Shown piece after piece: positions 2,074 through 21,967 of a DNA stretch of 64,000 nt (its first letter is position 1; each line of letters starts with the position of its first letter). The notes beneath the pieces are model-generated. The model did not search any database, had not been told where the DNA came from, and saw nothing but the letters and a program-made list of their open reading frames with translations. The DNA is taken from positions 32,001 to 96,000 of the forward strand of contig CAVZDU010000005.1 of assembly GCA_963774265.1 (NCBI GenBank). Direction: 5' to 3'. The translations under genes and the position numbers were made by a program. Origin of the DNA: an uncultured Chloroflexia bacterium (lineage in GTDB: Bacteria > Chloroflexota > Anaerolineae > CG2-30-64-16).

Positions 2074-3764
2074 TCACGGCCTGAAGATCAGCGGCGCGAA
2101 GAGCTTCATCGAAACCACTGTGATCGTAAACTCCGTGCTGCCAATGCCCCCGTCACCGTCGCTGACGGTTACCTTCAGGACGTAGGTCCCCACCGCCAGC
2201 TTCGATCCCGGCAGGGTCGCCATCGTACAAGTGGTCTTGGCGCCACTCGGCGTGCAGGTGGGCAGGGGCGTTACCCCCAGCCCCGAAGGCAGCCCTGGCT
2301 GCGACGCGCCGCCATTCTTGGTCCAACTGGTCACCACGGAGAGCGGCATATCGACTGTCACATCCGTGGCCGACACCGTGACCACCGCGACCGCACCTGG
2401 ATACTGCACCGTCTGCGTCGGTCGATCATTGGTCACGACTGGGGCCACGTTGGCGATGGTGATCGTGGCAGTTGCCGTATCACACCCACCCCGGTCGTCA
2501 CACACCTGCAGCGTCACCGTCTGCGTGTCCGGCCCGTCGCGGATGAGCGCGGAGAAGACGGGGTTCTGGCCGGTCGTTTCGAAGGTGCCGTCGTTGTTCA
2601 GGTCCCAGACGTACGTCAACGGGTCCGCCTTCCGGGTCGGTGGCCGTGCCGGCCAGCGTGATCTGCTCGCCCTCGTTCACGACGTAGGGGCCGCCGGCGT
2701 CGGCCGTCGGCAATTCATTGGGGACGGTGATCTCGATGGCGGTCGAGCTCGACGCCGCCATCGTGATCGTCGAAGGAGATCGTCACGCGGTAGAGGCCGC
2801 GCCCCATCTGCGCCACGCCGCCCAGGAGCCAGGTGCACGTGGTCAACGGGTCGCCCGGAGTGCAGCTGCCCGCGGTCAGCGTCAGGCCGGCCGGCAGCCC
2901 GCTGTTGGCAGCGCCGCCATCTTTGGTCCACGTGGTCGAGACGCCGAAGGGTATATCGCCCGGCACATCGGCCGCGGAGATGGTGACCACCTGGAGCGCG
3001 GTGTAGCGCGGAACAAGCTGCGCCGGGCAGGTTGTTGGTCACCAGCGGCGCCACGTTGGTGATGGTGATCGTCGTCGTGTCTTCGTCACACTCGCCCAGG
3101 TCGTCACACACCTGCAGCACCACGACCCGCTCTGCAGGCCCATCGTCGCCGTAGAAGGTCACGTTCTGGCCGGCCGTCTCGAAGCTGCCGTTGTTGTCGA
3201 GGTCCCAGAAGTAGGTCAGCGTGTCGCCGTCCGGGTCGGTGCCCGTGCCGGTCAAGGTAATCTGATGGCCCTCGGCCACCGTGTAGGGGCCGCCGGCCTC
3301 AGCCGTGGGCGGGTAGTTCGGGTCGATGAACACGACCGTGATCGTGATGTCTGTGTACCCGACACCCTCCTGGGGGTCGGTGACCGTGACGCGCACGATG
3401 TACGTGCCCGGCGGCGACCGCCATCGTGCCGGACAGCATCCAGGTGCAGGTGGTCTCACCGCCGCTCGGCGTACAGCCGCTGGGCGCCAGGGCCAGCTCC
3501 GGTGGCAGCCCAACCTGCAGCGGCCCGCCGTTCGCCGACCAGGCGGTCGTGACGAAAGCGTGTTCCATGTCGGCCGTGACATCGGTGGCCCAAATCGTGA
3601 CCGGGGAAGATCGGCTTGAAGTACAGCACGACCTGCGCCGGTCGACTATTGGTCACGGCGATCGCTGATGCCGGCGATGCCGGCGCGGCGGTCAGTGGCA
3701 GGGGCACAAGCAGCCCCTGGGCCAGGAGGATCAGGGTCAGAGCGATGGCGAAAGTTCGTTTCAT
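2074..3764 (-). CDS. Secreted PKD/Ig-like repeat protein (frameshifted in this sequence), C-terminus KLFAPLIFRP
   Basis: Signal peptide MKRTFAIALTLILLAQG; repeated PTA(E/D)AGGPY.V.EG..ITL.GT.TDP.G...Y.WDL..(D/N)G.FET.GQN and VTN..P..TVQY modules spread over several frames. Confidence 0.7.
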
Positions 3765-5605: not shown

Positions 5606-7591
5606 TCAGCGCGCGAGTTTGAGTGACGGATCGCCCAACAGATTGAACGTCAGCAGGATGTCGCGCACGCCACCGGCCTGATCGGGCAGCGCCATTTGCG
5701 CGTCGAGCACGATATCGCCCAACGAGCGCGTGCCTGGCCTGGCCAGCGCATCGGCCAGCCCCAGCGCCAACAGCCGCTGATCAGTCAGCACCGCCGCACT
5801 GCTCGGCACCAGCGCTGCGACCGCGCCTCCGCCCGCGCGGCGTAGCAGCACCTCGCTCAACGAGACCGTGGTGGGGTGCTCGAAGAAGCCGCTCAGGCAG
5901 GTCACCGTGAAGACGATCGGCAGGCGCCCGGAATTGTCCAGTTTCGCCGCATCCTCTACGTCGAACACCTTTTCCTTGGCCCACAGCGTCACGCTGCCGT
6001 GTCCGAAGTAGCCGATCAATCCGGCGCCGTCCCGAAAGCTGGCCCCCAAAGCTGCGCGGGCGTTCGCGCCGTCGCCCTCGATGGTCACCTGCTGCGAGGT
6101 GTAGCCCAGGCGGTTGGCGAACGCGGCCGCTTCCTCGGCGAAGCCCGGCTCATCGTTGTCCGCGACCAGCAACACGTCCGATCGCCACCTCAGGTCGCCG
6201 GCCTGGCGCTCGTAGGCCAGCGTCTTCTGCACCATAATCGCCAACTGCTCGGCGGTCTGCGCCGGGAAGCGCCCCACGGCGAAAGCGGGTCTTGTTGTCG
6301 GCCCGTCGTCGGGCAGCGCGTACCACACATCCGAGCCGGTCCAGCCCGAGAAGGTCGTGTAGACGCTCCGGGTCGGCACGAGATCGCTTTCAGTCCCCTT
6401 CAGCCAGCCCATCGGATCGTAGCTCGCGTCGCCGGCCAACAACAGGTAGGCTGGGGCCGGCGCAGTCCACTTCTGCCGGGCGTGCCGCATGAGCGCCTGG
6501 AGGGCTGCGGGATCGATGCGCCCGTGGCTGAACGCGTCGTAGACCTGCTCGACATCGAGCACCGCGACGCGCAGCCCCTGCGCCGTGCGCGCTGCAACCA
6601 ATGGCTTGAGGGTATCGCGGAACTGGGGCACGGTGATGATGACGAGGTCCGCGCCGCCGGGCCAGTCGGGCAGCGGATTCTCTGTGGTGGCCGCGATGGC
6701 GACTGGGGTCAGCACCGCGGCCGCATTGGCGGCCGCATCATCCGGCGCGGGCGTGCGGGGGTAGGCTATTTCCACCCACCGCAGATGCAGCGAGTCCGCG
6801 GCCGCGCCGGTGTCGCCCGGTGCGTCGATGACCAATTGATTCTCGTCCGGCTTCAGCACGCCGGCCGGGATGAGGGCGGTGACAAGGTGCGGACGCGCGC
6901 CATCCCACGCAGCATCAGAAATAAGCGTTCCGTTGAGGCTGATGAGGAGCCGGTGATCCGGGTCAACAGGCGCAGACGACTTGCTGATGACGAAGACCCG
7001 CAGCTCGCCGGGTCCCGCAGTCATGCCCGGGGCAGCGAGTGTGATTTTCGCTTCGGCCGGGGCGAAGAGCGTCTGCCAGTACCAGCGATCGGAGATCGCT
7101 TCGGCCTGGCCATCGTAAGCCAGGTCTCGTTCAAGACGGACGGTGGCAGTGACGACGCCGGTCGTTGAAACCGGCGTTGGCGTCGCTTGCGGGCGAGGCG
7201 CGGTCTCTGCTGCGCCCTGGGTTGCCCCTGTGACGCGACGCAGCCAGTAGACGTTGCGGGGCGTATAGGAATCGGAAGAAAGCCGCAGGCCATGAAAACG
7301 CACGGCAGCGTCACGGCCCTGGCCCACCAACTCGAACGCGATGGGCTGCCCTCCGACCGATAGCGCGAGCTGATCGGCGGTGGCTGACGCCAGGTCGAAT
7401 CCAGCCCTGGCCAGCTCCGCGGCCGTCACCTGGTAAATGCCATCTTCCTCCAGGCTGATCTTGACCGCGGACACGCTCTCTGCCGGCGGCGCAACGCACC
7501 CCGAGAGGAGGGCGACAAGCGCCAGGCCAAGGAACGCAAGGCCGATCGGGATCGAGCGGGAGTAAGTTCGGACATTGACCATAGAACTCAA
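5606..7591 (-). CDS. C25 family (gingipain/PorU-like) cysteine peptidase, lipoprotein
   Basis: Lipobox LLSGC; G+Y.VT..EL N-terminal motif, YLLLAGDASYD, VGRFPA, GHGS and TVTC His/Cys dyad, FNLLGDP. Confidence 0.88.
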   Translation of the reverse strand: MSSMVNVRTYSRSIPIGLAFLGLALVALLSGCVAPPAESVSAVKISLEEDGIYQVTAAELARAGFDLASATADQLALSVGGQPIAFELVGQGRDAAVRFHGLRLSSDSYTPRNVYWLRRVTGATQGAAETAPRPQATPTPVSTTGVVTATVRLERDLAYDGQAEAISDRWYWQTLFAPAEAKITLAAPGMTAGPGELRVFVISKSSAPVDPDHRLLISLNGTLISDAAWDGARPHLVTALIPAGVLKPDENQLVIDAPGDTGAAADSLHLRWVEIAYPRTPAPDDAAANAAAVLTPVAIAATTENPLPDWPGGADLVIITVPQFRDTLKPLVAARTAQGLRVAVLDVEQVYDAFSHGRIDPAALQALMRHARQKWTAPAPAYLLLAGDASYDPMGWLKGTESDLVPTRSVYTTFSGWTGSDVWYALPDDGPTTRPAFAVGRFPAQTAEQLAIMVQKTLAYERQAGDLRWRSDVLLVADNDEPGFAEEAAAFANRLGYTSQQVTIEGDGANARAALGASFRDGAGLIGYFGHGSVTLWAKEKVFDVEDAAKLDNSGRLPIVFTVTCLSGFFEHPTTVSLSEVLLRRAGGGAVAALVPSSAAVLTDQRLLALGLADALARPGTRSLGDIVLDAQMALPDQAGGVRDILLTFNLLGDPSLKLAR

Positions 7592-8532
7592 GGTTGTCGG
7601 GAACGCATATACAGCAGCGCCGCAGCCAACAGCCCGGCCAGCCCGATGGCGCTGCCGCCGATCACCCAGGCAAGTGCTGTGTTCCTTCCACTCTGCGCCG
7701 CTGCCTGCGAGGCTGCGTCCGGCGACGGTGTGGCGCTCGGGCCCGAGGCCTCGAAGATGCTTGGCGTGCTTTCGCGTGGCGGCCGCGGCGTCGCGGTTTC
7801 CAGGCCTGCAGGCTGGACCTGGGGCGTTGGGGTCAGCGCCGGCAGTTGAGTGGGCGCCGGCTCAATTGGAGCGGGAACGACGCTGGCCGGCGCTTGTGGG
7901 GCTGTGCCGGTGGGCGTCTTCACCGACGCAGCCGGCAGGGACGTTGCCGTTCGCCGCACGACGGGGGGCGCGGTAGACTGAACGCCTGGAAGCGGCGTGC
8001 CGGATGGAACGGCCGGGGTGTTTGTGAACTGCCGTGTTGCCGTCGGCGGCGGCGTGTCAGTCAGAGGGATGCCAGTTATCGTAGGGCGCGAGGTCGCGGT
8101 CGGATTCCTGGTGACCGTGGCCGTGGCGGTAGATGTTGAGGTGTCGGCGGGCAGATCAATCCCGGCCCAGATTGGCCCGAATTGTGACGTGCCCGCGTTT
8201 GACAGTTCCTCCAGGAGGTAGAAGTACCTGACCCCACTCGTCACTGTCAGATCAGTGTACTCGTAGATTGCGCCGGTGACGACGTTGCCTTTTGGACCTT
8301 GAGCATCGATGGGCGTCCCCCAACTGGATGGCGAAGCGATCTGAGCGCGAAAGAGCCGAAAGCCAGAGGTATCCAGTTCGGTTGCAGTCTCCCACACGAC
8401 CAGGATGGAATTGCCTTGGTGCGCGCTTGCCTCAAAGCGCACCAGGGTTACGGCGGCCAGAACGGTGTGAACAGGCACGACCAGACACAACACAGCCATG
8501 ATCATGACGGCCAGTAGATGTTTACGGTGCAT
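7588..8532 (-). CDS. Membrane-anchored protein: signal peptide, AVTL/WET Ig-FN3-like domain, Pro/Thr-rich linker, C-terminal TM with basic tail
   Basis: MHRKHLLAV...VLA|AVTLVRFEA...VVWETATELDTSGFRLFRA...YEYTD......YFYLLEEL; ends LAWVIGGSAIGLAGLLAAALLYMRSRQP. Confidence 0.75.
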   Translation of the reverse strand: MHRKHLLAVMIMAVLCLVVPVHTVLAAVTLVRFEASAHQGNSILVVWETATELDTSGFRLFRAQIASPSSWGTPIDAQGPKGNVVTGAIYEYTDLTVTSGVRYFYLLEELSNAGTSQFGPIWAGIDLPADTSTSTATATVTRNPTATSRPTITGIPLTDTPPPTATRQFTNTPAVPSGTPLPGVQSTAPPVVRRTATSLPAASVKTPTGTAPQAPASVVPAPIEPAPTQLPALTPTPQVQPAGLETATPRPPRESTPSIFEASGPSATPSPDAASQAAAQSGRNTALAWVIGGSAIGLAGLLAAALLYMRSRQP

Positions 8533-8561
8533 GTCGATGTTTCTACTCCCGGGCGCGAACA

Positions 8562-10964
8562 TCACCGCGTGACCACCGGCAAGAACAGTCTCGTTGGCGA
8601 GGCCGGCAACCGCATGGCGGGATCGCCAAACAAGGTCATCGTGTCGATCAGGTAGTGCTTGCCATACACTTGGCTGAACTGCTGCTTTGCGATGGTCAAC
8701 GCAACACCAACCTCTCGTATGTTGTCTTTGAACATAACGTCGAGAAGGATCTTCCGGAATGCCAGCTGGTGCGACGTTGTGCCCAAGCCGGACGGCGAGA
8801 CGGCGGCAATGGAGCCGCCCCCGGCGTGGCGCTGCATCAGTTCCGCGATGCTGAACCTCGCAGGGTCCGGATGTGCGAAGTAGCCATCGAGACAGTTGAA
8901 GGTCATGATCAGGGGCAGCTTCTCGCCATTTACGAGGGCAGGGATGTGGGAGCTGCGCCAGATGCTTTCGTGAGTCCATCGCTCCGGCGCGCCGTGTCCG
9001 GTGAATTGAACCATGAAGGCGCCGGCCTGGAGCGCGTCCGCGAGGGTCGAGTGGGTTGCCGCGATCTGCTCGGGAGTGGCAGGTGTGACGGCATCGCCGG
9101 GCAGGTACGCACGCACCACCTGGAGATCCGTTGGGGTATAGCCGGCGATGATCTCGTCGGACACTGCGGGAAAGTCGCCGGAAGAGTCCGGATTGTCGGC
9201 CACGAATAGCGCGCGGCGCTGCCAGTCCGCAATGCGCAGGTTTTCGTCGTAAGAAACGATCTTGTCCACCACGGTTCGCGCCTCGGCCAGTGTATTCACG
9301 GCGAGCCGGCCCACCGCAATCTCAGGCACCCTGTCGTCATCGATATCACCGAACTGGGCATCTGCCGGCACCTCGCCCTGCCATGGGTCCACCCACGCTA
9401 AGAAGGGCGGAATGTGCTGGGGCTGCAGGGGGTAGACTGCTTGATTGTTACCCTTGAAGTTCCAATGGCCGTCGCCGACGAGGGTCAAGTAAGCCGGCGC
9501 AGGCGACTGCCAATTGGCCACGGCCCATTTCATCATCACCTGCACGGCCTTTGGATGGAAGATGCCGTCGTTAAACTCATCGTACGCGTCCTGGATATCG
9601 ACCACCAGGGCACGGCGGTCATGAGCGCGATGCCACCCTGCCAGTTGCTCTGCCGCGACCCTTAGTTCAGCCGAAGTAACGATAACTGCGTCGGCGCCTC
9701 CCGCGGGATTGCGTAACCCGGTGGGGGGCCGTATCCGGATCGAAGCTGGCGCCTCAGCGGTGGTTGCGGTTTGTATCCAATACCGGCTGCCGACGGTGGT
9801 ATTGACGCGGAACCGGACGGTCACATCGGGACCTGATGCGGGTGGAGCGGATAGACGTACAGGATGCTTTGTGTCGGTGATATCCCAAATGAGCGTCTCA
9901 GGGCTTGACCAGCCTGATGCGGCGTACTCCTGGATTCCTCCCTCCTCCGATCGGAAGTCTAGCCGGTCCCCCCACGCGCGGAAAAGGCGACGATAATCCA
10001 GCTCCCAATAGTTCACATAAATGTCGTCATTGGGGACGCCGGGAAGCAGCATGGCGCTCACTGTCAGCGTGTTGGTTCCATGTGTCAGACCTCCTGCGGG
10101 AACAGGAGCGTTGAACACCTTTCGTACGGAGAGGCCATCCCAATTCTCGTCGAGGATTGTCGCACCGTTTAGCGTCGCCACCGTGCGATGGTCGGGGTTC
10201 AGATTCCACACGTATGCGTTGCTGATTTCCTCCAGGCGCAGCGTGGCGGCCGCGGCCGCCGGATATGGCACCACGTAGGGCAAATCGGCGGTGGCCGTCT
10301 GAGCCAGGATCCCGTTCCAGATTTGATCGGGTTCGGATCGCCTCTCGACGGCCGGTGCTGCGGCCCCTGCAGATAATGCCACCGGGCTCAAGCGGCTCCA
10401 AAACCACGTGTCCTGTGTATCCAAGCCCAGGGTGTATAATGTCCACCAAACATTCGACTCCTCGGCTCGTAACGTGGTCGCAAAATCCGTAGGCGGGGTG
10501 CGATCGTATTGAGGTGTGGCATCCCGCACCTCGATGCGCGGCCCCGTGGCGCCCCCGATGTCCAGCCAATACACGCGTTCATCCGTGTACTTCTGGTCCA
10601 TTTCTGGCCCGCGGAACTTCTCGCCGAAGAAATAGAGCGCATCACCCCCGTCGAATATCCCGTTGCCATCATCCGTCACATGGATTGCGACAGGTTGCCC
10701 CAGGCTCGACAGGGCGAAAGTGTTTGGGTTGGCGCCCGCGAGATTTGGATCGGCGTTCGCCAGATCGGCCGGCGTGACCTTTGTGATGCCGTCTTTGACG
10801 ACGCCAATGCGGACGCGGACAGGCCCTGCGGCCTCGGTACGCCGCGCGGTTGCGGGCGGCAGCATGGCAGTCAGGGCCAGAAGCAGGGCCAGGACAAGGG
10901 ATGCGGACCGGGAAAAGCGAACGGCCGGCCGCACCTTGGAGTGCATGATCGGTGTTAGTTGCAT
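8562..10964 (-). CDS. C25 family (gingipain/PorU-like) cysteine peptidase, secreted; C-terminus RLFLPVVTR
   Basis: DGITKVT..DL, YFFGE...YTDERVYWL, YLTLVGDG, IAVGRL, FTGHG and TFNC dyad, LFGDP. Start codon approximate (ORF open to 11030). Confidence 0.88.
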   Translation of the reverse strand: MQLTPIMHSKVRPAVRFSRSASLVLALLLALTAMLPPATARRTEAAGPVRVRIGVVKDGITKVTPADLANADPNLAGANPNTFALSSLGQPVAIHVTDDGNGIFDGGDALYFFGEKFRGPEMDQKYTDERVYWLDIGGATGPRIEVRDATPQYDRTPPTDFATTLRAEESNVWWTLYTLGLDTQDTWFWSRLSPVALSAGAAAPAVERRSEPDQIWNGILAQTATADLPYVVPYPAAAAATLRLEEISNAYVWNLNPDHRTVATLNGATILDENWDGLSVRKVFNAPVPAGGLTHGTNTLTVSAMLLPGVPNDDIYVNYWELDYRRLFRAWGDRLDFRSEEGGIQEYAASGWSSPETLIWDITDTKHPVRLSAPPASGPDVTVRFRVNTTVGSRYWIQTATTAEAPASIRIRPPTGLRNPAGGADAVIVTSAELRVAAEQLAGWHRAHDRRALVVDIQDAYDEFNDGIFHPKAVQVMMKWAVANWQSPAPAYLTLVGDGHWNFKGNNQAVYPLQPQHIPPFLAWVDPWQGEVPADAQFGDIDDDRVPEIAVGRLAVNTLAEARTVVDKIVSYDENLRIADWQRRALFVADNPDSSGDFPAVSDEIIAGYTPTDLQVVRAYLPGDAVTPATPEQIAATHSTLADALQAGAFMVQFTGHGAPERWTHESIWRSSHIPALVNGEKLPLIMTFNCLDGYFAHPDPARFSIAELMQRHAGGGSIAAVSPSGLGTTSHQLAFRKILLDVMFKDNIREVGVALTIAKQQFSQVYGKHYLIDTMTLFGDPAMRLPASPTRLFLPVVTR

Positions 10965-11096
10965 CGTGAAACCTTCGAAGGAAAAATACGCCAGACGCAC
11001 GCCCGGATCAAGGCGAGGCGTCTGGCGCAACAGTGCGAACGTAGGGCTGGATCGTTAGCACAAGTATATCGGTCGCAGGGGGGGTTGTCAAATGAT

Positions 11097-13419
11097 TTAC
11101 GGGATGGCCTGGCCTCGCCACACGCCCTGGCCGGCCGCATAGTTGCTGGTCCAGGCATAGATGTCCCCCCCGAAGGCCGTGAGCTCTGCAGCATTGTTCG
11201 CCGGGCTACCGAAACCGGTCGGCCCCACCTGCTCCCAGGCTGAACCATCGCGCGTTCGCCACACGCTTGTGCCGAGCGTGCTGTCGAGCGCGGCCACGTA
11301 CAGCCCATCGCCAGTGGCGACAGCGGCATCGGAGATGAAGCGGCCCGTGCTGCGCGCACCGAAGCTGACGGGGCTGGACAGCTGCCAGGATCCGCGGTCG
11401 CCCGTGGTGCTGCGCCAGATCCTGCGCGCCCTTGCCGGGCAGCGAAAACCCAATGTAGAGCGCGCCATCGTAGCTGTCCAGTACATCCACGCGAGCGATG
11501 TCATTTCCCAGACCGGCGTCCACGGGAGAAAACACCTTTTCCCACGCGGCGGGGTCATCGACGTTGCGCGTGCGCCAGATGGATCCTGGCTTCGTCATCG
11601 CAGTGACCGGCTGGGCCTCCACGCCGAAATAGAGCGCGCCGTCGAACTCGGCCGACGACCAGATTTTGACGTTGTTCGGGTCCCCGAAACCGTCCGCGTT
11701 TCGCTGCCGCCACTGGAGGAGGGTCGGATCCTGCGGATCGCGCGTGACCCCGTCGGTGCACCACACCTGCGCGCCGGGCGCCTGGCCTGGCCCGCCCCAA
11801 TTGCTCGTGCCCCCGCACAGCCGGCTGCGGAAGACGATCATATCCTTGAAGTTTTCGTTGCTCTGTTGCCCGAATCCCGGTTGGTTCACGCGTTCCCAGC
11901 TTCGGGGATCGCCCGTTGCGCTGCGCCACACCTGCGACCCGCGCTTATCGCCCGTCTGCATGGCGGTGGACGCGTACAGGAAGCCGTCGAACGGCTCGAT
12001 GCTGTCAATGTGGTCGTTGTCGGTGGTGGGCGGCAGCACCGCACAGTCGGTGGACCCGTCGAAGCCGTCGGAGACAACCTGTTCCCAATCCTCCTGGCTT
12101 GCCGGCGCCAGGACGCCCGCCTTGCTGCGCCAGATTCGCGCGCACGCCCTGCCCTCCATGCCCAGGTAGAGCTGATCCCTGAACACGGTCAGCTCGAAAC
12201 CCTCCTGACCGGTGTATTCGTCCACGTGTTCGCCAAACCCGGGCCTGTTGACCTGCGTCCATGCCAACGCGCACTTATCCAACGTGACCGCGTCGAACGG
12301 CTCGCGCTGGTCGTCGATGGCGGTGAGGGTGAGACTGCAACCTCGCACATCGGCTGCAACGAAGCTGTACCTGGACGCACTGAAGGCTGTCCACGCGCTG
12401 TGGCCAACGCTGTCGAGGAGTGCACCGCCGCCGCCGGTTACGATGTAGGTGACGCCCGGTTGGTCGGGGGCCGCGGGCTGCTCCTGCCACAGCGGCACGG
12501 TGCGCTCGTAGTCGCGGTCGTGGCCCGCGAAGACGACGTCCACGCCGCCCTGCTCGAACAGGGGACCCAGCGCATGGCGCACCTCGAGATCGCTTCCCTG
12601 TGCCCCGGAACTGTACGGCGGCTCGTGCAGGGTGACGAACTTCCACGGCTGCCTGCTCGCGGCCAGGTCGGCGGCCAACCACGCGTGCTGCGGTGATCCC
12701 GCGCCGAACGGCGCAGACGTATCCAACGCGACAAAATGTGCTGCGCCCCAGTCGAAGGAGTATACACGCTCGGCCAAGCCGGCCGGCCCGTTTTGGGGAA
12801 GATAGAACGCTTGCAGATAGGCGGCGGGCGGATCGACCTTCAGATCCCCGTCGCCGGCCGCCGGATAGATGGGTGCAAATGACATCAGGTCACGATACAC
12901 GGCGAAGACATCCGTGTCATGCTCCGCGGTCGTGCCGCCCCTCGTGAGGTCGCCCGTGTGAAGGACGAACGCGGGCCGCCTGGCGGCCATGCCTGTCGCG
13001 ATGGCGACCGCGGCAGTGGATGCACCCTGGCTTTCACCCGTCACCGCAAAGGTGAACGTCCCTCCCAGGGTCGCGGTGGTGAACGTCTGCGGGGGTGCTG
13101 CGGGCTGGAATCCGCGCCATGCCTGGTAAGTGACCTGTTGCTCGGGTTCAAGACCGGTCAGGGTGGCGAAGTAGTCGGTCCGGCCATTTGCCGTATGTTC
13201 TTGGGCGGCCGCGCGGCGGGTCAGCGCACCATCCAAGCCATAGCGCACCTCAGCCGCCCCGCCCACGAGCGTCGCCCAGGCTACCACCGCCGAAGTCTGC
13301 GTCACGTCCTGCACGTAGGGCGCGGTCAGAAGGAACGGATCGGTGGCGGGCGGGCCGGCCATCACGATGGGCAGATAGATGCCGAGCCAAATTGCCAGGC
13401 AGAGGCGTAAGTAGAACAT
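11097..13419 (-). CDS. Purple-acid-phosphatase-like metallophosphoesterase fused to a beta-propeller-like repeat domain (frameshift near 11430)
   Basis: PYVQDVT...VAW FN3-like N-terminus; HTGDL, YSFDWGAAHFVALDT, HEPPY, VFAGHD; C-terminal W.QV...GFG repeats continue in ORF 11097-11558. Confidence 0.75.
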
Positions 13420-13535
13420 CGTCGCGCTCGATCATACCCTTGGTTGGCCGAACGGACAAAGTCCGGTCTGCCGCGCGATCCACACGCGGGGGCTGCATCG
13501 CGACCTACACGTGGGGGCCGTGGCGCAATCCACAC

Positions 13536-13809
13536 GTAGGGGCGAGTGTGGCGCCGGCGAGAAGACCGGCATCCAGGCGTCCCACATCGGACCACATACA
13601 TCCGCTACCACAAACCTTTCTACGCCGCACTCGCCCTGGTCGGTCGCCGCGAACAGTGCATGGACGGCGTGCGCGATACGTGGTTCGATGCGGCACGCGC
13701 CGCCAACAAGGGCGAGTGCGGCGCACAGATGTTTGTCGTGGCGCATGTTTGCGATCCCATCCACCACGCGCCGTATCGTGGGTCGCGCCGGCGCCACACT
13801 CGCCCCTAC
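13536..13809. repeat. REPIN-like unit: inverted GTAG-family REP pair
   Basis: GTAGGGGCGAGTGTGGCGCCGGCG at 13536 and its reverse complement ending 13809. Confidence 0.85.
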
Positions 13810-13813
13810 GCAA

Positions 13814-14338
13814 TTACGCACCGGGGATTTGGGGGTGGTGTTCGTCGTGCGGCCAGTTGAGGGGGTTGTCGTGGATGTATTTGCGAATCGCGTCCAGATT
13901 GGCGTCGGAGCGGATGATGCGTTCGTAGTAGTTTCTCTGCCAGACCTGGCGGCCGGTCACGCCTCGGATCCGGTTTATGCGTTGGGTCGTGGTTGATTTG
14001 TATGCGCCAATGATGGCGCCCAGGGAGCCGGTCGGCGCGCCGGCGGGAGGCGTGGACGGAAGGGATGGGGCGTGAACGGGGTTGAGCCTGGCTTGGTTGA
14101 TGATCAGGATGCCGTGCAAGTGATTGGGCATCACCACCCACGCATCGAGGGACACGTGCGAGAAGCGCTTTGGTAGTCGCAGCCAGAAGGATTCCGCGAT
14201 CCCCTGCAGGATGGCATCATCAAACAGGCATTCTCGCCCCTGTGTTACGATCGTCACGAAATAGGCGCCGCTCTGCGCATAATCATATCCTGGCAGCCGG
14301 ATCGAATGACGATCGTGTTTATCAGGATCGTACCTCAT
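13814..14338 (-). mobile_element. REP-associated tyrosine transposase (RAYT, Y1 HUH family)
   Basis: RHSIRLPGYDY...AYFVTIVT, VVMPNHLHGI (HUH), WQRNYYERIIR, YIHDNP; flanked by REPs. Confidence 0.92.
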
Positions 14339-14396
14339 TTCTGGCGCTCCTCCGGCAGGACCACAGCATCACATTTGGGGGCGGCGAGAACCACGC

Positions 14397-14730
14397 GTAG
14401 GGGCGAGTGTGGCGCCGGCGAGAAGGCCAACATCCCGGAGCCCTACATCGGACCACGCACATTCTCTACCACGAACCTTTTTGCGCCGCACGCGCCCTGG
14501 TCCGGTCACCGCGAACGATGCATCGGCGGCGTGCGCGATGCCTGGTTCGATGCGACATGCGTCTCGCCCTTGTGGCGTGACGTTCGGCGTGTGCGATGCG
14601 TGGTTCCATTCGACGCGCGCCGCAACGAGAGGGCGAGTGCAGCGTACGGACGTTCGCCGTCACACATGTGCGTGATCCCATGCACGGCGCGCCGCCGACA
14701 GAATCGCGCCGGCGCCACACTCGCCCCTAC
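14397..14730. repeat. Second REPIN-like unit, homologous to 13536-13809
   Basis: Same inverted REP ends and a recognisably related spacer (CACATCGGACCAC..., GCGCGAT..TGGTTCGATGCG). Confidence 0.85.
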
Positions 14731-14770
14731 ATGATGACGCGGCGCGGACGGTGTGCGTGGATGACGGAAC

Positions 14771-14811
14771 AAAAAACGCACGGTGGCTGCCTTGATGGCA
14801 ACGCACCGTGC
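14771..14811 (-). terminator. Intrinsic terminator after the 14837-15548 gene
   Basis: GCACGGTG...CACCGTGC stem with a 6-T run on the minus strand. Confidence 0.6.
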
Positions 14812-14836
14812 ACCGGTAATCAGGAGATGTTATACG

Positions 14837-15548
14837 TCAGGCCGTGCGGCGGCGGCTGATGGCCAGGCCGGCCACGACGAGCAACGCCACGGCGCCGAGG
14901 CCGGCATATAGCGGCCAGGTGGGGACGGGATCGCCGGCGGCGAAGGTGGAGAGTGTGACAGAGTTGGCATCGTACATGCTGAGATCGGCACTGCTGAACG
15001 TCGCATTCGCTCCGCCAAATGGGCAGCCCGTCATCATGACGAACAATGTCCCGCCCGAGCTGGCAGGTTTGGCATTCAAATAGTTGATCAAGCCCGGAGC
15101 ATTAGTACTGCTATCAAATACAAGTTGGCTACCGGAAATCGACGCGGTTCCAAGAGTCCCATTTGAAGCGATCGGGGGGAAAGTTGTACCACCATTCAAG
15201 CTGGCCTTGGCCCAATTCTCACCAGAATCGGCGATTCCATACAGCGTAAACGACACCCCCGCTCCAGGATCAACTCCTGCCAGAGCGAGTGTTAATTTGG
15301 TAGGCTTTGGGGTGCCGCTGATTGACCCGTTCGACATGCTCCATTGCATGTAGACCGCCGTCTTGGGGTTGCATGCAGAAAAAGAACCTGTCGCCGTCGC
15401 GCTCAGCACGTCGGGATAGGGAGTGGAGTCACCAGAGGCTGCAGTTGCAGCCTGATCAGGGCCACCAGAATTGAGCTGAGCCAGCACGTGTCCCCGCGGA
15501 GAGAACCAAGAGACTTATGATGGCGAAAAGAAGAATTCGTTTGTACAT
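14837..15548 (-). CDS. Surface protein with C-terminal 'NSVTLSTFAA' + TM + RRR anchor (1-nt frameshift after the signal peptide)
   Basis: AAGGAG RBS; MYKRILLFAIISLLVLSAG signal then a frame change into ORF 14837-15487; ends DANSVTLSTFAAGDPVPTWPLYAGLGAVALLVVAGLAISRRRTA. Confidence 0.7.
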
Positions 15549-15589
15549 GTTCGACTCCTTATCTAGTTCGCGTTAGAAGAAGCCTGGGT

Positions 15590-16306
15590 CTAGGGCCAGG
15601 AAGTGTTGGCTTTTAAACAGACCATGTAAGGATACCCGGGCTGTACTGCAAAATCCGTTCCATGCGGGATGACGTTCGGCAGCCAGTAGTCCGTAAAATC
15701 CTGGTCGGCGGCCTGCCACTGTAGCACTTGGTCCACCACAGAGGGCCCACCCATCGCAGTAACCAGATCCGATGCGTGACTGATACCAGCGTTCCATTGG
15801 TCCAGTGGAATGATGATGTTGTTGTAGGCACAATTCGGACTCGCGCCGACCAAATTATTGTACTTTACATCTCCAACCGGAGGAACGTCGCCAACAATCG
15901 AGAATACGGATGGTGCAGTCGAATCAAGCCGGATCCAGTATACGCCTCCTACCTCAAGCGAGAAGTTAGCTCCATGAGGAATAGTATTGGGTAAGTAGTA
16001 ATCGGTGAAGTCCTGAGCAGCAGCATTCCAATGCAGGACCTGATCCACTGTCTTGGGCTGTCCAACTGGCGCCTTGTTGAGGTAATCCACCAGCGCGACA
16101 GCATTCGGAATGGAACCTGTGGCATCCAGGGGAAGGGCAACAACGTTATATCTATACGTTACATCCGGCGCGTCCGGCGCAGCCGCCGCGGACACAACCG
16201 GCGCGGCCGCCAGGGGCGCACCCGCGTTGGGCAGCGCCAACACGGCCAGTGCGCCCAGCCCAAGGAGCAGGGCGACGGCGAGGACTGTGGTCAAAACTCG
16301 TTTCAT
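15590..16306 (-). CDS. Secreted protein with an internally duplicated ~90-aa domain
   Basis: AAGGAGG RBS; signal peptide; two copies of YN...PLD...VDQVL.W.AA.QDFTDY.LPN.IPHG..F....G..Y. Confidence 0.8.
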   Translation of the reverse strand: MKRVLTTVLAVALLLGLGALAVLALPNAGAPLAAAPVVSAAAAPDAPDVTYRYNVVALPLDATGSIPNAVALVDYLNKAPVGQPKTVDQVLHWNAAAQDFTDYYLPNTIPHGANFSLEVGGVYWIRLDSTAPSVFSIVGDVPPVGDVKYNNLVGASPNCAYNNIIIPLDQWNAGISHASDLVTAMGGPSVVDQVLQWQAADQDFTDYWLPNVIPHGTDFAVQPGYPYMVCLKANTSWP

Positions 16307-16387
16307 AAGAAGTTACCTCCTTGAGCCGGTCGATCGGCCATCGCAGGGCCGCGTAAAGTTGAGATGCGCCTAGGTGAGGTATGATAG

Positions 16388-16416
16388 ATTGTACATCCCC
16401 CCGCGGTGGTTGTCAA
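16388..16416 (-). promoter_or_regulatory. Sigma70-type promoter for the 16306 gene
   Basis: Minus strand TTGACA-17 nt-TACAAT. Confidence 0.7.
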
Positions 16417-16573
16417 TTGGCATTAAGTAGCATAAGTCGGGATGACTTCGGCATTCCTCGGAAGGGAACCAGCAAGGGCTACTGCTCGTGAATGCGGCCC
16501 AGTCCATGGGAGTGGCGCCGGCCTGGCAACCAGGGAATCCATCGTCCCGAAGGGGACGGTCACAATGTGGAAT

Positions 16574-16600
16574 AGGGCTGCACAATTGAGGTGCAGCCCT
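16574..16600. terminator. Perfect 10-bp hairpin, possible terminator
   Basis: AGGGCTGCAC-7 nt-GTGCAGCCCT. Confidence 0.5.
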
Positions 16601-16721
16601 TAACCTCTACCGGAAGTTGAGATCGCCCGCGACCACGGAGGCATATACGTCCCACCTGCGGGCTCTCTTGCCACCTCGAAAGGCGAGCGGAACAACGAGA
16701 AATTTCGCAGGTGATGGCGTC

Positions 16722-16850
16722 CTACTTGTTGGCGCCCGTCAGATCAAGCGGATCCTCGATGCCAAGGCGAGTACCCGCCCGGACTTCCAGCACTGACTCG
16801 TAGACCACCGCGGGCTCCTCGTATGGCTTGCGCTCCAGTTTCTGCTCCAT
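16722..16850 (-). CDS. 42-aa RiPP-like precursor peptide with lasso-type leader (not in the ORF track)
   Basis: AGGAGG RBS; MEQKLERKPYEEPAVVYESVLEVRAGTRLGIEDPLDLTGANK*; YxxP motif; directly downstream of the PqqD gene. Confidence 0.8.
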   Translation of the reverse strand: MEQKLERKPYEEPAVVYESVLEVRAGTRLGIEDPLDLTGANK

Positions 16851-16883
16851 AAATTCCTCCTAAAACTGATTGTGACACTACAA

Positions 16884-17210
16884 CTACAAAAGCGGTTCGT
16901 CGAGGCTCAGCAGCCCTCGTCCGGCCAGGTCACGGCAGAAAGCCAGGGCATCCGCCTCTGCCTTGTCCAGGCTGACCTCGTACTCGACGGCGATCACCCG
17001 GGCCATGCCGGTCACCGTGTGTTGGCCATCGGCCAGTTCCCACAGCCTGGCGCCGACTCCGTTCAACACGACAACTTTGCCCTGCACCGGATGAACCAGG
17101 ACCGCCTCACCGTCGAGCGTGCGGCTGGCAACGCCCGATACACGGCGGGGATGGTCGCTCAACACCATGCCTCTACCCATCTCGACGGTTCGTTCCGGCG
17201 TTGATGACAT
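16884..17210 (-). CDS. PqqD-family RiPP recognition element (RRE)
   Basis: R.LDGEAVLV......VLNGVGARLWELADG..TV..MA..IA.EYEV....AEAD...F...L...GLL. Confidence 0.9.
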   Translation of the reverse strand: MSSTPERTVEMGRGMVLSDHPRRVSGVASRTLDGEAVLVHPVQGKVVVLNGVGARLWELADGQHTVTGMARVIAVEYEVSLDKAEADALAFCRDLAGRGLLSLDEPLL

Positions 17211-18042
17211 CCCAAAACGAGTCGTCTTTGCGGAAGTGCAACCGCTCTACACCTACAGTTACGACAATGTCCCGGCATCGGTCGAGCAGGCCGGGCAACA
17301 GGGCTGGCTGACTGTTGATAATCGGGCAATTGGCCGTCAGCTCTGCTGTTGCCGCCCCGGCGCTCATCGGCGAAACAAAGACGTCCGGGTCCTGAGCTAG
17401 CTTGTAAATCGCGCGAATCGAACCGTTGTCAAGTTGCCCGTCGTGGTCCCCGGTCTCCAGGTTCCAAAAGGGCGTGCCGTATGCCCACCAGCCTTGAGCC
17501 TCTCGACGTAAGAGGATCAAGTCGTCCCCTAGCGCTGTCGCTCGCCGGCTTGCTCTTGAAAGCGAAACAACGGTTGACTTGCCGCTGCCGCTCTGTCCGA
17601 TGAACAGATAGATGCCTGCGCCTGCTTTGAGGGCCGCACAGTGAACCAACAGGCCGCCGGCATGATAGGCGAACAGCGCCAACGCGACACGCAGGAAATA
17701 CTCGATTTCACGCGTCAAAGCATCGGAGCGCACGCGCAACGATGCACGTGCTTCGAATGGGGCAATCATACCACAGAAATTGCTGCCGTCAAGTAGGAAT
17801 TTGTCCCCACTCGTCCTTAAGATGGCGTCCAGGAGACTGGCGCTCGCCTCGGTGCTCGCCTCAGCGCCCGCCTCAGCGGCGATCTCAACGATCAGGTCTG
17901 CCGCCTGGCCCTCATCCGGGCTGCAAAAAGGCGCATAGCGCGGCGCGATGGCTGCGCCAAGCGCCGGCGGATGAAGTTCCAGCCTGAGGCGCCAGCCGGC
18001 CAAATTCAAATACATCGTGTGGTGGTCCATCGCATCGCGCAA
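17173..18042 (-). CDS. HPr kinase-related P-loop protein (ScmC/PadeK-like)
   Basis: GGLLVHCAAL, Walker A GQSGSGKST, LGDD, YGTPFW, C-terminal LHFRKDDSFW. Confidence 0.78.
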   Translation of the reverse strand: MRDAMDHHTMYLNLAGWRLRLELHPPALGAAIAPRYAPFCSPDEGQAADLIVEIAAEAGAEASTEASASLLDAILRTSGDKFLLDGSNFCGMIAPFEARASLRVRSDALTREIEYFLRVALALFAYHAGGLLVHCAALKAGAGIYLFIGQSGSGKSTVVSLSRASRRATALGDDLILLRREAQGWWAYGTPFWNLETGDHDGQLDNGSIRAIYKLAQDPDVFVSPMSAGAATAELTANCPIINSQPALLPGLLDRCRDIVVTVGVERLHFRKDDSFWDVINAGTNRRDG

Positions 18043-18048
18043 ACGCGT

Positions 18049-18512
18049 TCAGCCGGTATGGGCGCGCGTCTTCTGCAGCAGCCGGCCACCGCGCCACCAG
18101 ACCACGAGCACGAGCAGCGCAAGTCCCCCCAGCACCAGGCCGTGGCGCCAGTCCAGCCCGCCGGCGCGCACGCTGATGGGGCCGAATTTGTTGATCGCGC
18201 CGTTGCGCTCGACCTCCTGCAATTCGTAATAGTAAGTCACACCCGCCTGGGCCGTGCGGTCGACGTAGCTGTACTCTCCGCCGGTCATCGGATCTGCTGA
18301 CGGCGGTATCAGCGCATCATTGATCTTGGCCTCGAACGGCCCATCGGGCGAGAGGCCGCGGTAGAGGTTGAAGCCGGCCGTGTTCATCTCGGTTTCGGTC
18401 TTCCAGGTGACGCGCACCGGCGCACTGCAGCCCCCGAGCACCAGGACGAAGATCAGCACGGCCAGTAGGGTGGAGGGTGAGCGGTGGGTGGCGAATGACC
18501 TATGGACACTCA
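18049..18512 (-). CDS. Lipoprotein-like protein with WxT-E-GF Ig/FN3-like module and C-terminal TM
   Basis: VLGGC lipobox, VRVTWKTETEMNTAGFNLYRG...YSYVD......TYYYELQEVE, hydrophobic tail then WWRGG. Start uncertain. Confidence 0.72.
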
Positions 18513-20392
18513 AAGCGAAAATCCCTTTCCAGTGTGGTTTCCTCACGGCATGCACCGGCTGCCACTGAAAGAGCGCTGCCCATGGCGCCGGCCTGTTTGC
18601 GCACGAAAAGGCGGTAGGGCCTGGCCGGCACGCCCGGCGGCAGGCGGTAATGAAGCGCCACCAGGTGCTGTTCGCCAGGTTTGAGCACGAAATCGCCCGT
18701 GAAAATGGTCGTGTCGCGCACGCCGGCCTCGGTTGCCGGGTCGTTGAGCCCTTCGATCGAAATCAACTCGCTGCCGCCCGGCGCGTAGATGCGCACGTAA
18801 CTCCAGTAGCAGCGCCGCGCCAGGTCATCATACGTCGCACCGTAGCGCGGGCGCGGTCGCAAATCGGCTCGGAACCGATGGGGGCCGTGTGGGTGTAGGT
18901 CAGCTTCAGCGAGGCCACCAGGCGGCCGTCCTGCTCCTCGACCGTGTAGTCGATCCGCTGCTGCACGAGCAGGTTTGCCTTGTTGAAGCCAACGTTGCTG
19001 TCGACCACAAGCAGAAAGTCGCTGTCATCCGGCGGACGCACACCGCCATCCCAGCGTCGCTCGGCCAGCAGCGCGGCCAGAGCCGGGTCGTCCACCGCCA
19101 CTTGCAGATTGCGCGCCTCGAGCGCGGTGTAGAGCGCCCGTGCGAGGGCCGCCATGTCTATATCCGCGCCGCTTTGCAGCGGTCCGCCTTGCACCCGGCC
19201 CAACGCGGCCTTGACCAGCTCGCCCATGAAGTCCTTGCGCTGCTCCCACCAGGCCGTGCCGCCGCCGGTCTCCGGCCCGGTTTCACTGCCCACGGGCGCC
19301 TGCCAGGCGGCTTTCATCCACTGAATGGCGTTATCGCCCGTCACGGGTTCATTGATGCCGGGCACCTGGAGAGGTCCCACTGCGCCCACGAGCAGGCGCA
19401 CCGCCTCGAGATCCAGCGCAACCGCACCATCGGTCTGTATGCCACGATCCTGCAAGTACAGCGCGCGCGCCACGTCGGCAGCTTCGGGGAAATCGGGCGA
19501 CCAGTTGCTGTCACGCAGCAGCCAGAGATCCGCGGCCATGTACTTGGCCAGCGGCGCTGGCGGCGCGGTGTGGGGCTGCTCGAAGTTATCGACCGCATAG
19601 CTGTCTGCCAGCGTCAGGTCGGTGATTTTCCCCCGGTCGAACGTCACGTGTCCGGCGCCGCTGATGAAGCCGCCTGTGCCGCGCAGCTCATCGTTATTCT
19701 GGGCGAGCACGAGGTAGGTGCGCGGGCCATCGACGCCGAGGAGCGCGGGCGATCTCCGCAAGCTCCAGCCCATCGATCGCCAGCGGCAACAGCGCGTCGA
19801 GTTTCGTGAGCTGATCCGCCAGCTTCGGTTCGGTCAGCGGCGGCAGCGCTGCGCGGAGTTCGGCTGCGCGGGCCATGCCCGCGCGTGCAGCCTGCAGTTG
19901 AGGCTGCGCGGCCTGGAGCGCGTCGACCGCCTGCGGCAGCGCGTCCAGCCCGCCGCCACCGGCCACCATTTCGCCGATCGGCGCGAGCGCGTCCACCGCG
20001 GTGCGGCCCGCCGTCGACAGCGCCCCCGCCATATCGAGCAGCTGGGGCGCGATGACGATGTCCGGGCCAAAGCGCGGCGCCCAGCCCAGGTGCGGCGCGA
20101 GGCGGAGGAACGGGCCGGCCGCGGCTTGAGCCTCTTTGAGATGGGTGTCCAGGCTGGCGATATCGGCCTGAACGTGGGACAGCGATTCGAGGGAAGGCTG
20201 CGCCATGGCGGCCTGCAGCCGATCAAGGTCGGCCAGCGCAGCGCGCGCGTAGATGCCGGCGCGCGCCGCGCGCCAGCCCAGCCATCCCACCAGCGCGAGC
20301 GTCGTGACGATGAGCGCTACGGCCAGCCATCGCCGGAGGGTTTGCTCTCGAGTTTGTTCCCCCTGTGCTTCGATCATCGAGCCATGTGTCAT
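18500..20392 (-). CDS. DUF4012-domain membrane-anchored protein (frameshifted, three ORF pieces)
   Basis: N-terminal TM, helical stalk, GPRTYLVLAQNNDELRGTGGFI, RDSNWSPDFP, DSNVGFNKAN, YRLFVRKQAG. Confidence 0.75.
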
Positions 20393-20403: not shown

Positions 20404-21967
20404 TCATCGTATGACGGATAGGTCGTTGCGTGCAGGGCGCAGGCGCACCAGCACGCCGGTCTGTTCTTCGACGATGCCAGGCAGGGCTAATGCCAGGTCA
20501 TCGGCCCGATATACCGGTCGTTGAGCGGCCCATGCCGCTTGAAGTGATTCTTCCAGTGGCGCCTTCGATGGCAGCACACCCGGGTGCGTCTCGGCGAAGG
20601 TCGCGTCGTACCAGTCAAAGCCGTAGAGGTTCACGTTCAACACGGCCACATCATTCCGCTGGCGCAAACCATAGACGCCATACCACAGCGCAAATGTGGT
20701 CCGGTCGCCGGTTGTCAGGATGAGCGAGTCCGGCTCGGCCTCCGCCAGCGCAGCGGAGAGGAAATCACGTGCCTCACGGTCGCTTCGCAGATCATGGGCC
20801 GCCCAGTTGCGCACCAGCGACGCGGCCGGCAGTGCGGCCAGCAATACGATCACCGCAGCTGCACGCCATGCCGTCCCGCGCAGTCGTTCGATCGCCCAGT
20901 CGATGGCCAGGGCGGCCCACAATGCGACCGCGGCCCACGCCGGGATCAGATAGACGTTCGAATCGGTCGTATTATAGCCGATCCCGTAAATTGTGAAGGC
21001 CAGGAAGACGAGCAGCGTCGCGCGCCACCACGCGCGATCCCGCCACCGGAGCCGCCAGAGCCCGGCCAGCGCCAGCAGCAGTCCCCACGGTCCGCCGAAC
21101 TGCCACATGGCCTCGCTGATCCAGCCGAGTAGGCGTGCGGGTGCATCGACCAGGGGCAGCCCGAACGGCAGCCCTGCGTACAGCCGGCCTGAGACCGTCC
21201 ACAGGAAGCGCCCCGGCGTGACAGGATCGCCCCAGTTGATTGGCGGGCGACCTGCCGCGGCGAGGGGCAAGTAGCCGTACACGAACAGGCCGAGGAGGGT
21301 GCAAAGGCCCGCAACGGCCAGTATCCCGTCCGCCCCGAGGGATGCCCCGCCTATTCGCCCAAACCCAGGCCGCCAACCCGGGCAGGATCAGGGCCAGCGT
21401 CAGGTGGTTGCCCAGCCCCAGCCCAAGGACCAGGCCCGCGGCCTGCAGCGAACGGCCATCGGCGTCCTCAGCCCAGCGCCACATCAGCCATAATAGCGCC
21501 ACGGAGGCCAGCGCGTTGAGCGCATAGACCTCGGTGATGGTCGCCTGTCCCCACACGGCAGGTGCTGCAGCCCACGCGAGCGCGGCGACTGTACTGGCAA
21601 TCGCTGCCGGCCATGGGGCCTTCCCGATCTGGGTGACCTTCGAGGTCTCCGGCACCTCGATGGTGCCGGGAGCCGCGAGCATCCGCTGGGCCAGGTCAGC
21701 CAGAAGCGCGGCTGCCAACGCGGCGCAGATGGCCGAGAGCCAGGCCCCCGCGCGGGCGGGATCGCCGCCAAGGATAGCAATGGCCGCTCGGAGGGCAAGT
21801 TGATAGGTCGGATAGCCGGTGGGATGAGGTACACCGTGGGTTAGCGCTGCAGCGAGCAGATCGCCGCCGTCCGCGCCACCGTGCGCCCAGGTGAGCCCCG
21901 GCGCAAGCGTCAAGCCGTAAAGGGCGAACGCACCGAGGCCTGCAATGAGTGCGGGCCAGCGCCTCAC
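20404..21967 (-). CDS. DUF2723/TMEM260-like membrane glycosyltransferase (frameshifted near 21300)
   Basis: TLAPGLTW...DGGDL......GVPHPTGYPTY, ITEVYAL, GLGNH, YLPL...INWGDP. Confidence 0.8.

Follow-up and report, generated by a model that had tools for sequence, protein, structure and literature searches.

A C-terminal tail resembling the first strand of an FN3-like domain, and a membrane lipoprotein lacking that strand, in Anaerolineae-type Chloroflexota

By an operational definition reportedly due to Haft, a C-terminal sorting signal is a homologous tail on non-homologous proteins that occurs several times per genome and co-occurs with one partner gene. A domain divided between two molecules is found in the man-made SpyTag/SpyCatcher pair, in which a single strand of an Ig-like domain is carried by one polypeptide and the remainder by another, the two being joined by an isopeptide bond. 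In type V pili the lipoprotein pilins, which have a two-domain transthyretin-like fold, are cleaved after an N-terminal anchor strand by the gingipain Rgp, and a C-terminal donor strand then enters the neighbour (PMC13655056). Here we describe a locus within 64,000 nucleotides (the window; contig CAVZDU010000005.1, positions 32,001 to 96,000, assembly GCA_963774265.1) of an uncultured bacterium of the Chloroflexota class Anaerolineae. Three minus-strand genes of the window carry a divergent domain related to fibronectin type III (FN3), here called WET, in three forms: whole (WETfull), as a copy of its first strand, strand A, only (the 14837 protein), and with strand A missing (WETlipo). A preliminary description had claimed this pattern, and the minus-strand sequence bears it out. 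The copied strand belongs to a C-terminal tail that we consider very probably to be a true sorting or anchoring signal. Below, G-numbers denote the genomes compared, G000 being the one that holds the window, and L-numbers denote WETlipo loci.

The mature part of WETfull opens, after a signal peptide ending in VLA, with AVTLVRFEA...VVWETATELDTSGFRLFR. In its AlphaFold model, where the predicted local distance difference test (pLDDT) score is >90 across the domain, the AVTL stretch forms strand A (residues 29-38), which is hairpinned to strand B (42-51). The gene lies between two genes for PorU-like C25 cysteine peptidases, C25a and C25b, and overlaps the start of C25a. The 14837 protein, the body of which is read in frame 14837-15487, has the C-terminus ...ANSVTLSTFAAGDPVPTWPLYAGLGAVALLVVAGLAISRRRTA. 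The start proposed for it at position 15548 is a true ATG with a signal peptide, but a single frameshift inside that signal peptide splits it from the body. WETlipo consists of a hydrophobic region, an LGGC lipobox, then SAPVRVTWKTETEMNTAGFNLYR... and finally a C-terminal membrane helix. Because SAPVRVTWKTETE follows the lipobox directly, the domain starts at strand B. The strands of its model run at 47-53 (strand B), 59-67, 93-99, 107-116 and 121-130, with none ahead of B. Since the A strand that pairs with B is absent, an open strand-B edge is expected. Lgt and LspA genes for lipoprotein processing are present.

The fold of the WET domain is that of FN3. VIA-align matched it to the FN3 domain of Ihog (2ic2_B; Z 8.9, root-mean-square deviation 2.9, 94 aligned) and to the Fn3-like domain 3mpc_B of C. 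thermocellum (Z 8.7), which places it in the fold defined by a seven-strand beta-sandwich with A-B-E and C-C'-F-G sheets. The WETlipo model is a single domain whose best structural matches among those listed are FN3, which leaves families beyond the list in play. Foldseek against the PDB was marginal for the WET domain, with a best E-value of 1.4e-3 and thus no match at E≤0.001. In Pfam, no family including fn3 matched the three window proteins at E≤0.01 and none matched the WET domain or the 18049 protein (WETlipo) at E≤1; NCBIfam gave no match to the WET domain. WET is therefore a divergent family without a Pfam model, and it is a large one, with 5039 representative clusters at E≤0.001 and 187 at E≤1e-10. 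Its members may stand alone behind a signal peptide, close the C-terminus of large proteins, or form arrays in which up to 26 stretches match. Among named ESM-Atlas clusters, Por_Secre_tail comes nearest to the domain (0.84), which we take as a lead only. At the level of titles and abstract openings, we found no paper on the tail, the WET domain or Chloroflexota PorU-like peptidases, and neither the WET domain nor the tail nor WETlipo falls under a curated family.

A profile from 18 tails (A3) has the consensus G-P-[N/T]-A-V-x-L-x-x-F-x-A, a spacer, W-P-L-x-A-G-L, the rest of the helix and R-R-R. Between the strand motif and the helix lie 3-8 residues, and the helix begins as WP-x-x-AG-L, its Pro invariant and its Gly nearly so. 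Compared pairwise, the 26 homologues of the 14837 family have a mean identity of 81% over the helix plus RRR, 49% over the motif and 29% over the body. The homologue search was seeded by shared words and so favours conserved tails; the same tail was also present on 6 orthologues located by synteny alone. To compare the motif with strand A we used a hidden Markov model (HMM) built only from the strand-A regions of 97 WET domains (consensus ..PTAVTLASFTA..) and run on 24,188 C-termini. At E≤10 it matched 14/44 tails, as against 14/24,143 other six-frame C-termini of G000. Owing to this enrichment, the likeness of the tail motif to strand A is real, and beyond chance as a class.

The preliminary description would have failed had the tail not been a recurrent paralogous motif; counted genome-wide by profile, it is a recurrent paralogous module, and it sits on unrelated proteins. 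Searching A3 against 20 WETlipo-positive genomes (E≤1e-4) found tails in 18 of them, at 97 places and up to 22 per genome, on open reading frames (ORFs) of 29-2533 aa. The cargo includes two ExeM/NucH nucleases, at L018 and L024 (NF033681, 589-613 bits). Two further examples come from G000: a protein of ice-binding-like type (PF11999) on contig C3 and a nuclease with a WET domain on contig C1. Among 20 further cargo ends that we fetched, a complete WET domain directly preceded the tail in 13 (12 by pattern, 1 by eye), a GEVED-like motif in 5 and something else in 2. When proteins of 379-2000 aa were searched with word seeds for a near-identical tail, not one of the 580 candidates scored. Therefore, the highly conserved WPLYAGLGAVAL form of the tail is confined to the CBM96 family to which the 14837 protein belongs, and the looser tails were recovered only by profile search. 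Taken together, homologous tails sit on non-homologous proteins, several per genome, with WETlipo as the best phyletic match, as in the operational definition given above. Scanning 9 tail-bearing proteins with the NCBIfam CTERM and sorting models gave no score that reached a model's cut-off. The sub-threshold matches (GVDTG, LPXTG_anchor, VPLPA, CoaP and GG_III) covered the helix and Arg part only; VPLPA-CTERM, for example, reached 12 bits where the cut-off stands at 25.35. The A3 tails contain no PEP motif, and a search of G000 (84% complete) for exosortase (EpsH, PF09721) found none.

WETlipo is a strongly conserved, one-copy-per-genome protein. It has 207 homologues at E≤0.001, and among 120 of these identity is 57-89%; in the same 120 the lipobox C43, the B-C region W51..R66 and the C-terminal helix are invariant, with strand A absent throughout. 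Distant WETlipo-like proteins with 42-52% identity occur in G210, G250, G015 and G002, where either a lipobox or an uncleaved N-terminal helix directly precedes strand B and a C-terminal helix follows the domain.

We then asked which gene best follows the distribution of the tail in a sample of 301 Chloroflexota genomes. At E≤1e-4 the tail was present in four of these (G000, G015, G210 and G250). A WETlipo-like protein, on a criterion of at least 90 bits and full length that was set after the scores were seen, was present in 5/301, including all four tail genomes. A C25 peptidase was found in 42/301 genomes, again including 4/4 of those with tails. ScmC-like proteins (7/301, by single-protein query) and DUF4012 proteins (104/301, a tally that takes in two unpublished genomes) were each found in 2/4 tail genomes, and as tail partners both were rejected, their phyletic patterns fitting the tail worse than that of WETlipo. 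All 19 genomes with a strong WET match sit among the 42 that are C25-positive, so the WET domain goes with C25 and the tail with WETlipo. The distribution of the tail thus fits WETlipo better than C25, ScmC-like or DUF4012 proteins, making WETlipo its most specific candidate partner. Orthologues of the window's sortase with 43-44% identity occur in G210 and G250 and show no linkage to WETlipo there, which is not decisive for sortase as a partner.

From the observed architectures, tail recurrence, co-occurrence and neighbourhoods we infer docking and possibly cleavage. Our overall reading, to which we give tentative and somewhat less than even credence, is of an Anaerolineae-type tripartite tail that docks onto WETlipo as a split FN3 domain, with probable hand-over to C25 peptidases. 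The tail would be a lineage-specific C-terminal sorting or anchoring domain of Anaerolineae-type Chloroflexota, made of strand motif, 3-8-residue spacer, helix and Arg cluster. WETlipo is the same FN3 domain minus strand A, with one membrane tether immediately ahead of strand B and a second one following strand G. The cargo helix would pack beside the WETlipo anchors while the cargo strand paired with strand B and so occupied the empty A position. Cargo captured in this way at the membrane surface would probably be passed to PorU-like C25 peptidases, whose genes lie next to many cargo genes. In WETfull strands A and B form a hairpin, and in the split form both ends of this hairpin lead into the membrane; the arrangement is as though a membrane hairpin were inserted in the A-B turn and then split. 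Strand completion is the simplest account of why the piece missing from one family is just the piece that the other adds, equally far from the membrane. We also count for it the many-to-one relation between up to 22 cargo proteins and one WETlipo per genome, which favours WETlipo as the partner, and the constraint seen in the invariant B-C region of WETlipo and in a tail helix far more conserved than the cargo body. Even so, we regard it as possible but doubtful that WETlipo is the tail's receptor by strand completion. The fuller proposal of sorting by fold completion, in which the cargo strand is the missing first strand of a membrane-tethered FN3 acceptor that acts with PorU-like C25 peptidases, we think rather unlikely as a whole. 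That C25 peptidases process tail cargo has a little short of an even chance. They are the likeliest enzymes to act on it, given the neighbourhood and the analogy with PorU and with the gingipain-driven strand exchange of type V pili.

Several observations weigh against docking. The preliminary description had made it depend on the 18049 domain having an open groove and not folding completely alone. This domain is predicted to fold confidently by itself (pLDDT >94 across the domain), although strand A, the partner of strand B in WETfull, is missing from it. FN3 domains can tolerate the loss of strand A, and in view of both points WETlipo does not require a partner strand. A complex prediction, run without controls, for the WETlipo ectodomain (residues 44-135, A2) and the helix-free tail (160-192, A1) gave 0.06 against a mark of 0.32, a score that weighs on neither side of the question of binding. 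A complete WET domain already precedes the tail on most cargo proteins, so the strand might be a linker kept by descent. The helix is conserved above the strand, as would also be expected if the tail were read by an intramembrane or juxtamembrane enzyme. Three WETlipo-positive genomes (G313, G315 and G002) gave no tail, and about four lineages (families f1, f7, f8 and f11) account for the co-occurrence. Moreover, the tail search scored 22 candidates per genome in the 301-genome sample as against 150 in the 20-genome search. Within the WETlipo clade, where C25 and ScmC-like proteins are each present in 20/20 genomes, co-occurrence does not discriminate between the candidates. Lastly, in some genomes the ScmC to tail to C25 stretch lies on a contig other than that of WETlipo (contig C25 of G305 as against the contig of L012), so the adjacency of tail and WETlipo in the window is not universal. 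It follows that the window joins two modules, one running from the sortase through the glycosyltransferase-like gene and DUF4012 to WETlipo and the other comprising ScmC, PqqD, the peptide, the 238-aa protein, the tail gene, C25b, WETfull and C25a.

An enzymatic reading of the tail takes it as a substrate signal, cleaved by C25 or by the divergent sortase at the strand motif and/or at P-x-x-AG and perhaps leading to re-attachment of the cargo, with WETlipo as an accessory or an unrelated protein; its model is PorU acting on T9SS (type IX secretion system) C-terminal domains. A C25 gene lies within 10 kb of 28/97 tail genes, where about 2.4 would be expected, and within 20 kb of 40/97, counts that are not all independent since two genomes share near-identical contigs. 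The CBM96 tail gene is followed by C25b, WETfull and C25a at L010, L015 and L016, and in G015 a tail ORF directly follows a C25 gene. Because tail genes cluster in this way with PorU-like C25 genes, the alternative offered in the preliminary description, that the strand marks a cleavage site, stays in play. Both window C25 proteins keep GHG and C catalytic-type motifs (GHG and TC in C25a) while resembling PorU below the model cut-off, and every genome with a strong WET match is C25-positive, as noted. However, C25 alone does not predict the tail, as 38 of the 42 C25-positive genomes have none at E≤1e-4, and no cleavage has been observed. As to the sortase, the tail has its three parts arranged like those of sortase and exosortase signals, with a hydrophobic stretch and a C-terminal basic cluster, the window holds one sortase gene, and a sortase is part of the cluster at 14/20 loci. 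Against it, no LPXTG-like pentapeptide precedes the helix in any of the 18 tails of A3, TIGR01167 reaches only 13.8 bits (cut-off 15.9) on the L018 tail and there covers the helix and Arg part alone, G000 has a separate canonical LPVTG protein, and the G210 sortase orthologue is 134 kb from its WETlipo gene. We judge this enzymatic reading doubtful.

If instead the tail were a plain membrane anchor, its strand would be a relic, left when a terminal WET repeat was cut after strand A and fused to a helix; WETlipo would be an FN3 domain that lost a dispensable edge strand, and the co-occurrence would reflect the shared ancestry of one clade. This is consistent with the 13/20 cargo tails that follow a complete WET domain, just where the next tandem repeat would begin, with the long WET arrays, with a strand-less domain that folds alone in the model, and with positive genomes that come from few lineages. 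It is nevertheless unlikely. The motif is kept on cargo free of WET, namely CBM96, GEVED-like and ice-binding-like proteins and some nucleases, and the tails have diverged far less than the bodies that carry them. An anchor directly followed by strand B is the layout at 89% identity and still at about 42%, be the anchor a lipobox or a helix, and genomes that are WET-positive and C25-positive without WETlipo show no tails. Very unlikely, in our estimate, is an exchange like that of type V pili, in which C25 would remove strand A from full WET domains and the C-terminal strand of another molecule would fill the groove, building chains or a surface layer with the natively strand-less lipoprotein as base or anchor. 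The ingredients are those of type V pili: lipoproteins, C25 genes flanking a WET protein with strand A at its mature N-terminus, and cargo with an extra strand-A copy at its C-terminal side. Of the features of type V pilins, a lipobox and a neighbouring C25 gene are present, while the strand is natively absent in the 18049 family. The membrane helix after the donor strand argues against fibre growth unless it is cut off, no conserved cleavage site was identified in the A-B loop, there is no evidence of polymers, and the WETlipo model is a single domain whose best listed matches are FN3, as against the two-domain transthyretin-like fold of the pilins (PMC13655056).

The features around the three genes are listed in Table 1.

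Table 1. Features of the WET locus, in window coordinates
Feature	Position	Strand	Basis or remarks
C25a, PorU-like C25 cysteine peptidase, N-terminal lipobox LLSGC	5606..7591	-	PF01364 259.8 bits; NF033707 194.6 bits vs cut-off 420
WETfull: signal peptide, complete FN3-like WET domain from strand A (AVTLVRFEA), Pro/Thr linker, C-terminal membrane helix	7588..8532	-	
C25b, secreted PorU-like C25 peptidase, ends RLFLPVVTR (YLP-type)	8562..11030	-	PF01364 262.7; NF033707 232 bits vs cut-off 420
Metallophosphoesterase	11206-13419	-	family scan
Repeat-rich stretch with transposase-like ORF	13400-14800		ORF list only
Tail-bearing cargo, CBM96/DNRLRE type (14837 protein)	14837..15548	-	PF24517 CBM96 and NF033679 DNRLRE on homologue P0006; 26 homologues
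Tail of 14837 protein: strand-A-like NSVTLSTFAA, short spacer, WPLYAGLG... membrane helix, RRRTA	14840..14983	-	alignments A1, A3
Secreted 238-aa protein, internal duplication	15590..16306	-	conserved upstream neighbour of tail gene
Conserved 42-aa peptide ORF (..RKPYEEPAVVYES.LEVRAG..PDPLD..)	16722..16850	-	conservation across loci
PqqD-like peptide-binding protein	16884..17210	-	PF05402 60.6 bits; TIGR04248 ScmD 43 bits, below cut-off
ScmC/HprK-related P-loop protein	17173..18042	-	TIGR04249 23.9, TIGR04355 19.4 bits, both below cut-off
WETlipo: lipobox, FN3-like WET domain from strand B (no strand A), C-terminal membrane helix	18049..18555	-	
DUF4012 membrane protein, three ORFs via frameshifts	18500..20392	-	one 622-aa frame in L009, PF13196 110 bits
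TMEM260-like (ex DUF2723) protein O-mannosyltransferase-like, two ORFs	20404..21967	-	PF11028 86.7 bits (92.4 in L009)
Divergent sortase, N-terminal membrane helix	22343..23284	-	PF04203 64-65 bits; class E best, 43 bits vs cut-off 160

Gene neighbourhoods were counted at 20 genome loci around WETlipo, the record titles of which name metagenome-assembled genomes of Anaerolineae and other Chloroflexota. DUF4012 is immediately upstream of WETlipo in 17/20, and the TMEM260-like gene is present in 15/20, in each case two genes from WETlipo. ScmC-like genes are found in 9/20 loci, PqqD and the 42-aa peptide in 11/20 each, the 238-aa protein in 8/20 and the CBM96 tail gene in 6/20. The triad of C25b, WETfull and C25a is found at 3/20 loci, the same three at which it follows the tail gene (several loci end earlier), and also in G250. 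In G210 the WETlipo, ScmC-like and tail genes are consecutive, and at L018 the tail-bearing nuclease adjoins WETlipo. In the window the repeat-rich stretch is inserted between the tail gene and the triad, which adjoin one another in the three loci; it consists of overlapping ORFs with similar peptide strings in several frames and holds a 174-aa transposase-like ORF (13814-14338, minus strand).

Single frameshifts interrupt the 14837, DUF4012 and TMEM260-like genes of the window, all of which are intact in orthologues. The assembly carries many frameshifts, which accounts for the split genes and for the frameshift in the signal peptide of the 14837 gene; they are probably indel errors of the assembly and not pseudogenes. 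No Pfam or NCBIfam family was found for the 238-aa protein or the 42-aa peptide. The peptide ORF comes after PqqD at the 11 loci that have it, and a partial copy (C3:52401-52454) directly follows the ice-binding-like tail gene. It is probably a precursor of the ribosomally synthesised and post-translationally modified peptide type for the pair of PqqD and ScmC-like proteins, in a cassette without a described product. A second cluster in G000 (C1:1004861-1015138, minus strand) comprises two secreted proteins that end in WET domains, PqqD, a radical SAM/SPASM protein, a ScmC-like protein and C25, all frameshifted. The human TMEM260 enzyme is said to mannosylate Ig-like IPT domains, and a beta-sandwich substrate for the TMEM260-like protein is conceivable.

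C25b itself ends in a C-terminal motif, [I/L/V][Y/F]LP[L/I/V/M][I/V]x[R/K], which lies at or near the stop (8562-8590). This YLP-type motif is found in 36/24,144 six-frame ORFs of at least 100 aa in G000, as against 12/14,014 internal windows used as a control; about 20 of the 36 are convincing by eye and sit on large secreted proteins. Moreover, it ends 24 of the 150 best WET-domain representatives, and a PKD/Big_9 repeat protein in the window (2074-2619, minus strand, frameshifted further upstream) ends in the variant KLFAPLIFRP. It looks like a second, commoner sorting tag of the organism. At another locus (L039, on G015:C515) a membrane ORF at 11149-11832, two genes after a WETlipo-like gene, contains EELFFRGF, which we take to be typical of intramembrane proteases of the CPBP/CAAX type. 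In the window no gene of this type was seen adjoining WETlipo. According to a preprint abstract, myxosortases belong to the CPBP/CAAX-type family.

The tail bears on how filamentous Chloroflexota, which are abundant in sludge, sediments and hot springs, display and retain proteins at the surface. Its profile lets such surface cargo be listed (nucleases, carbohydrate-binding, ice-binding-like and giant adhesin-like proteins, at most 22 per genome), and a strand-only tail matched to a strand-less domain offers a tangible way into a possible new recognition principle for sorting signals. It also opens a first route to the function of the PorU-like C25 peptidases, which are common across the Chloroflexota, a phylum not known to have a T9SS. 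Should strand completion prove true, the recognition principle would be new, and logic like that of T9SS or type V pili would extend beyond the Bacteroidota.

Set beside the T9SS of Bacteroidota, with its C-terminal domain, PorU and PorV, the locus is alike in having a cargo beta-sandwich near the C-terminus and a genomic coupling to PorU-like C25. It differs in that the C25 proteins of the window are far below the PorU model (194-232 bits vs 420), with no PorU equivalog at the NF033707 cut-off, and in that the cargo module is FN3 plus a membrane helix and not a cleavable terminal domain; no Por_Secre_tail or CTD model matched the tail cargo. With type V pili and with chaperone-usher systems it shares a beta-sandwich without an edge strand, the matching strand on other proteins, lipoprotein anchoring and a neighbouring C25 gene. 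Here, however, the strand is natively absent from the gene, the fold is FN3, the donor strand is helix-tethered and no polymer is known. It resembles SpyTag/SpyCatcher in the division of one domain into a strand and the rest of the domain on two polypeptides, and differs from it in that the latter is engineered and joined by an isopeptide bond. In layout the tail is like the tripartite systems LPXTG/sortase, PEP-CTERM/exosortase, GlyGly-CTERM/rhombosortase and MYXO-CTERM/myxosortase, which share with the tail a motif, a helix and a basic C-terminal cluster, as well as many unrelated secreted cargo proteins per genome in a many-to-one relation with one partner gene. The ExeM/NucH nucleases that carry the tail here carry other such signals elsewhere (the NF033680 'ExeM-GG' model). 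Whereas those systems have a cleavage motif of 3-5 residues, the tail has a strand motif of roughly 11 residues that is homologous to FN3 strand A and lies 3-8 residues before the helix, and its best-matching partner is a non-enzymatic FN3 membrane protein. The tail is best described as a new C-terminal sorting signal of a known general class, whose signature is an FN3 strand.

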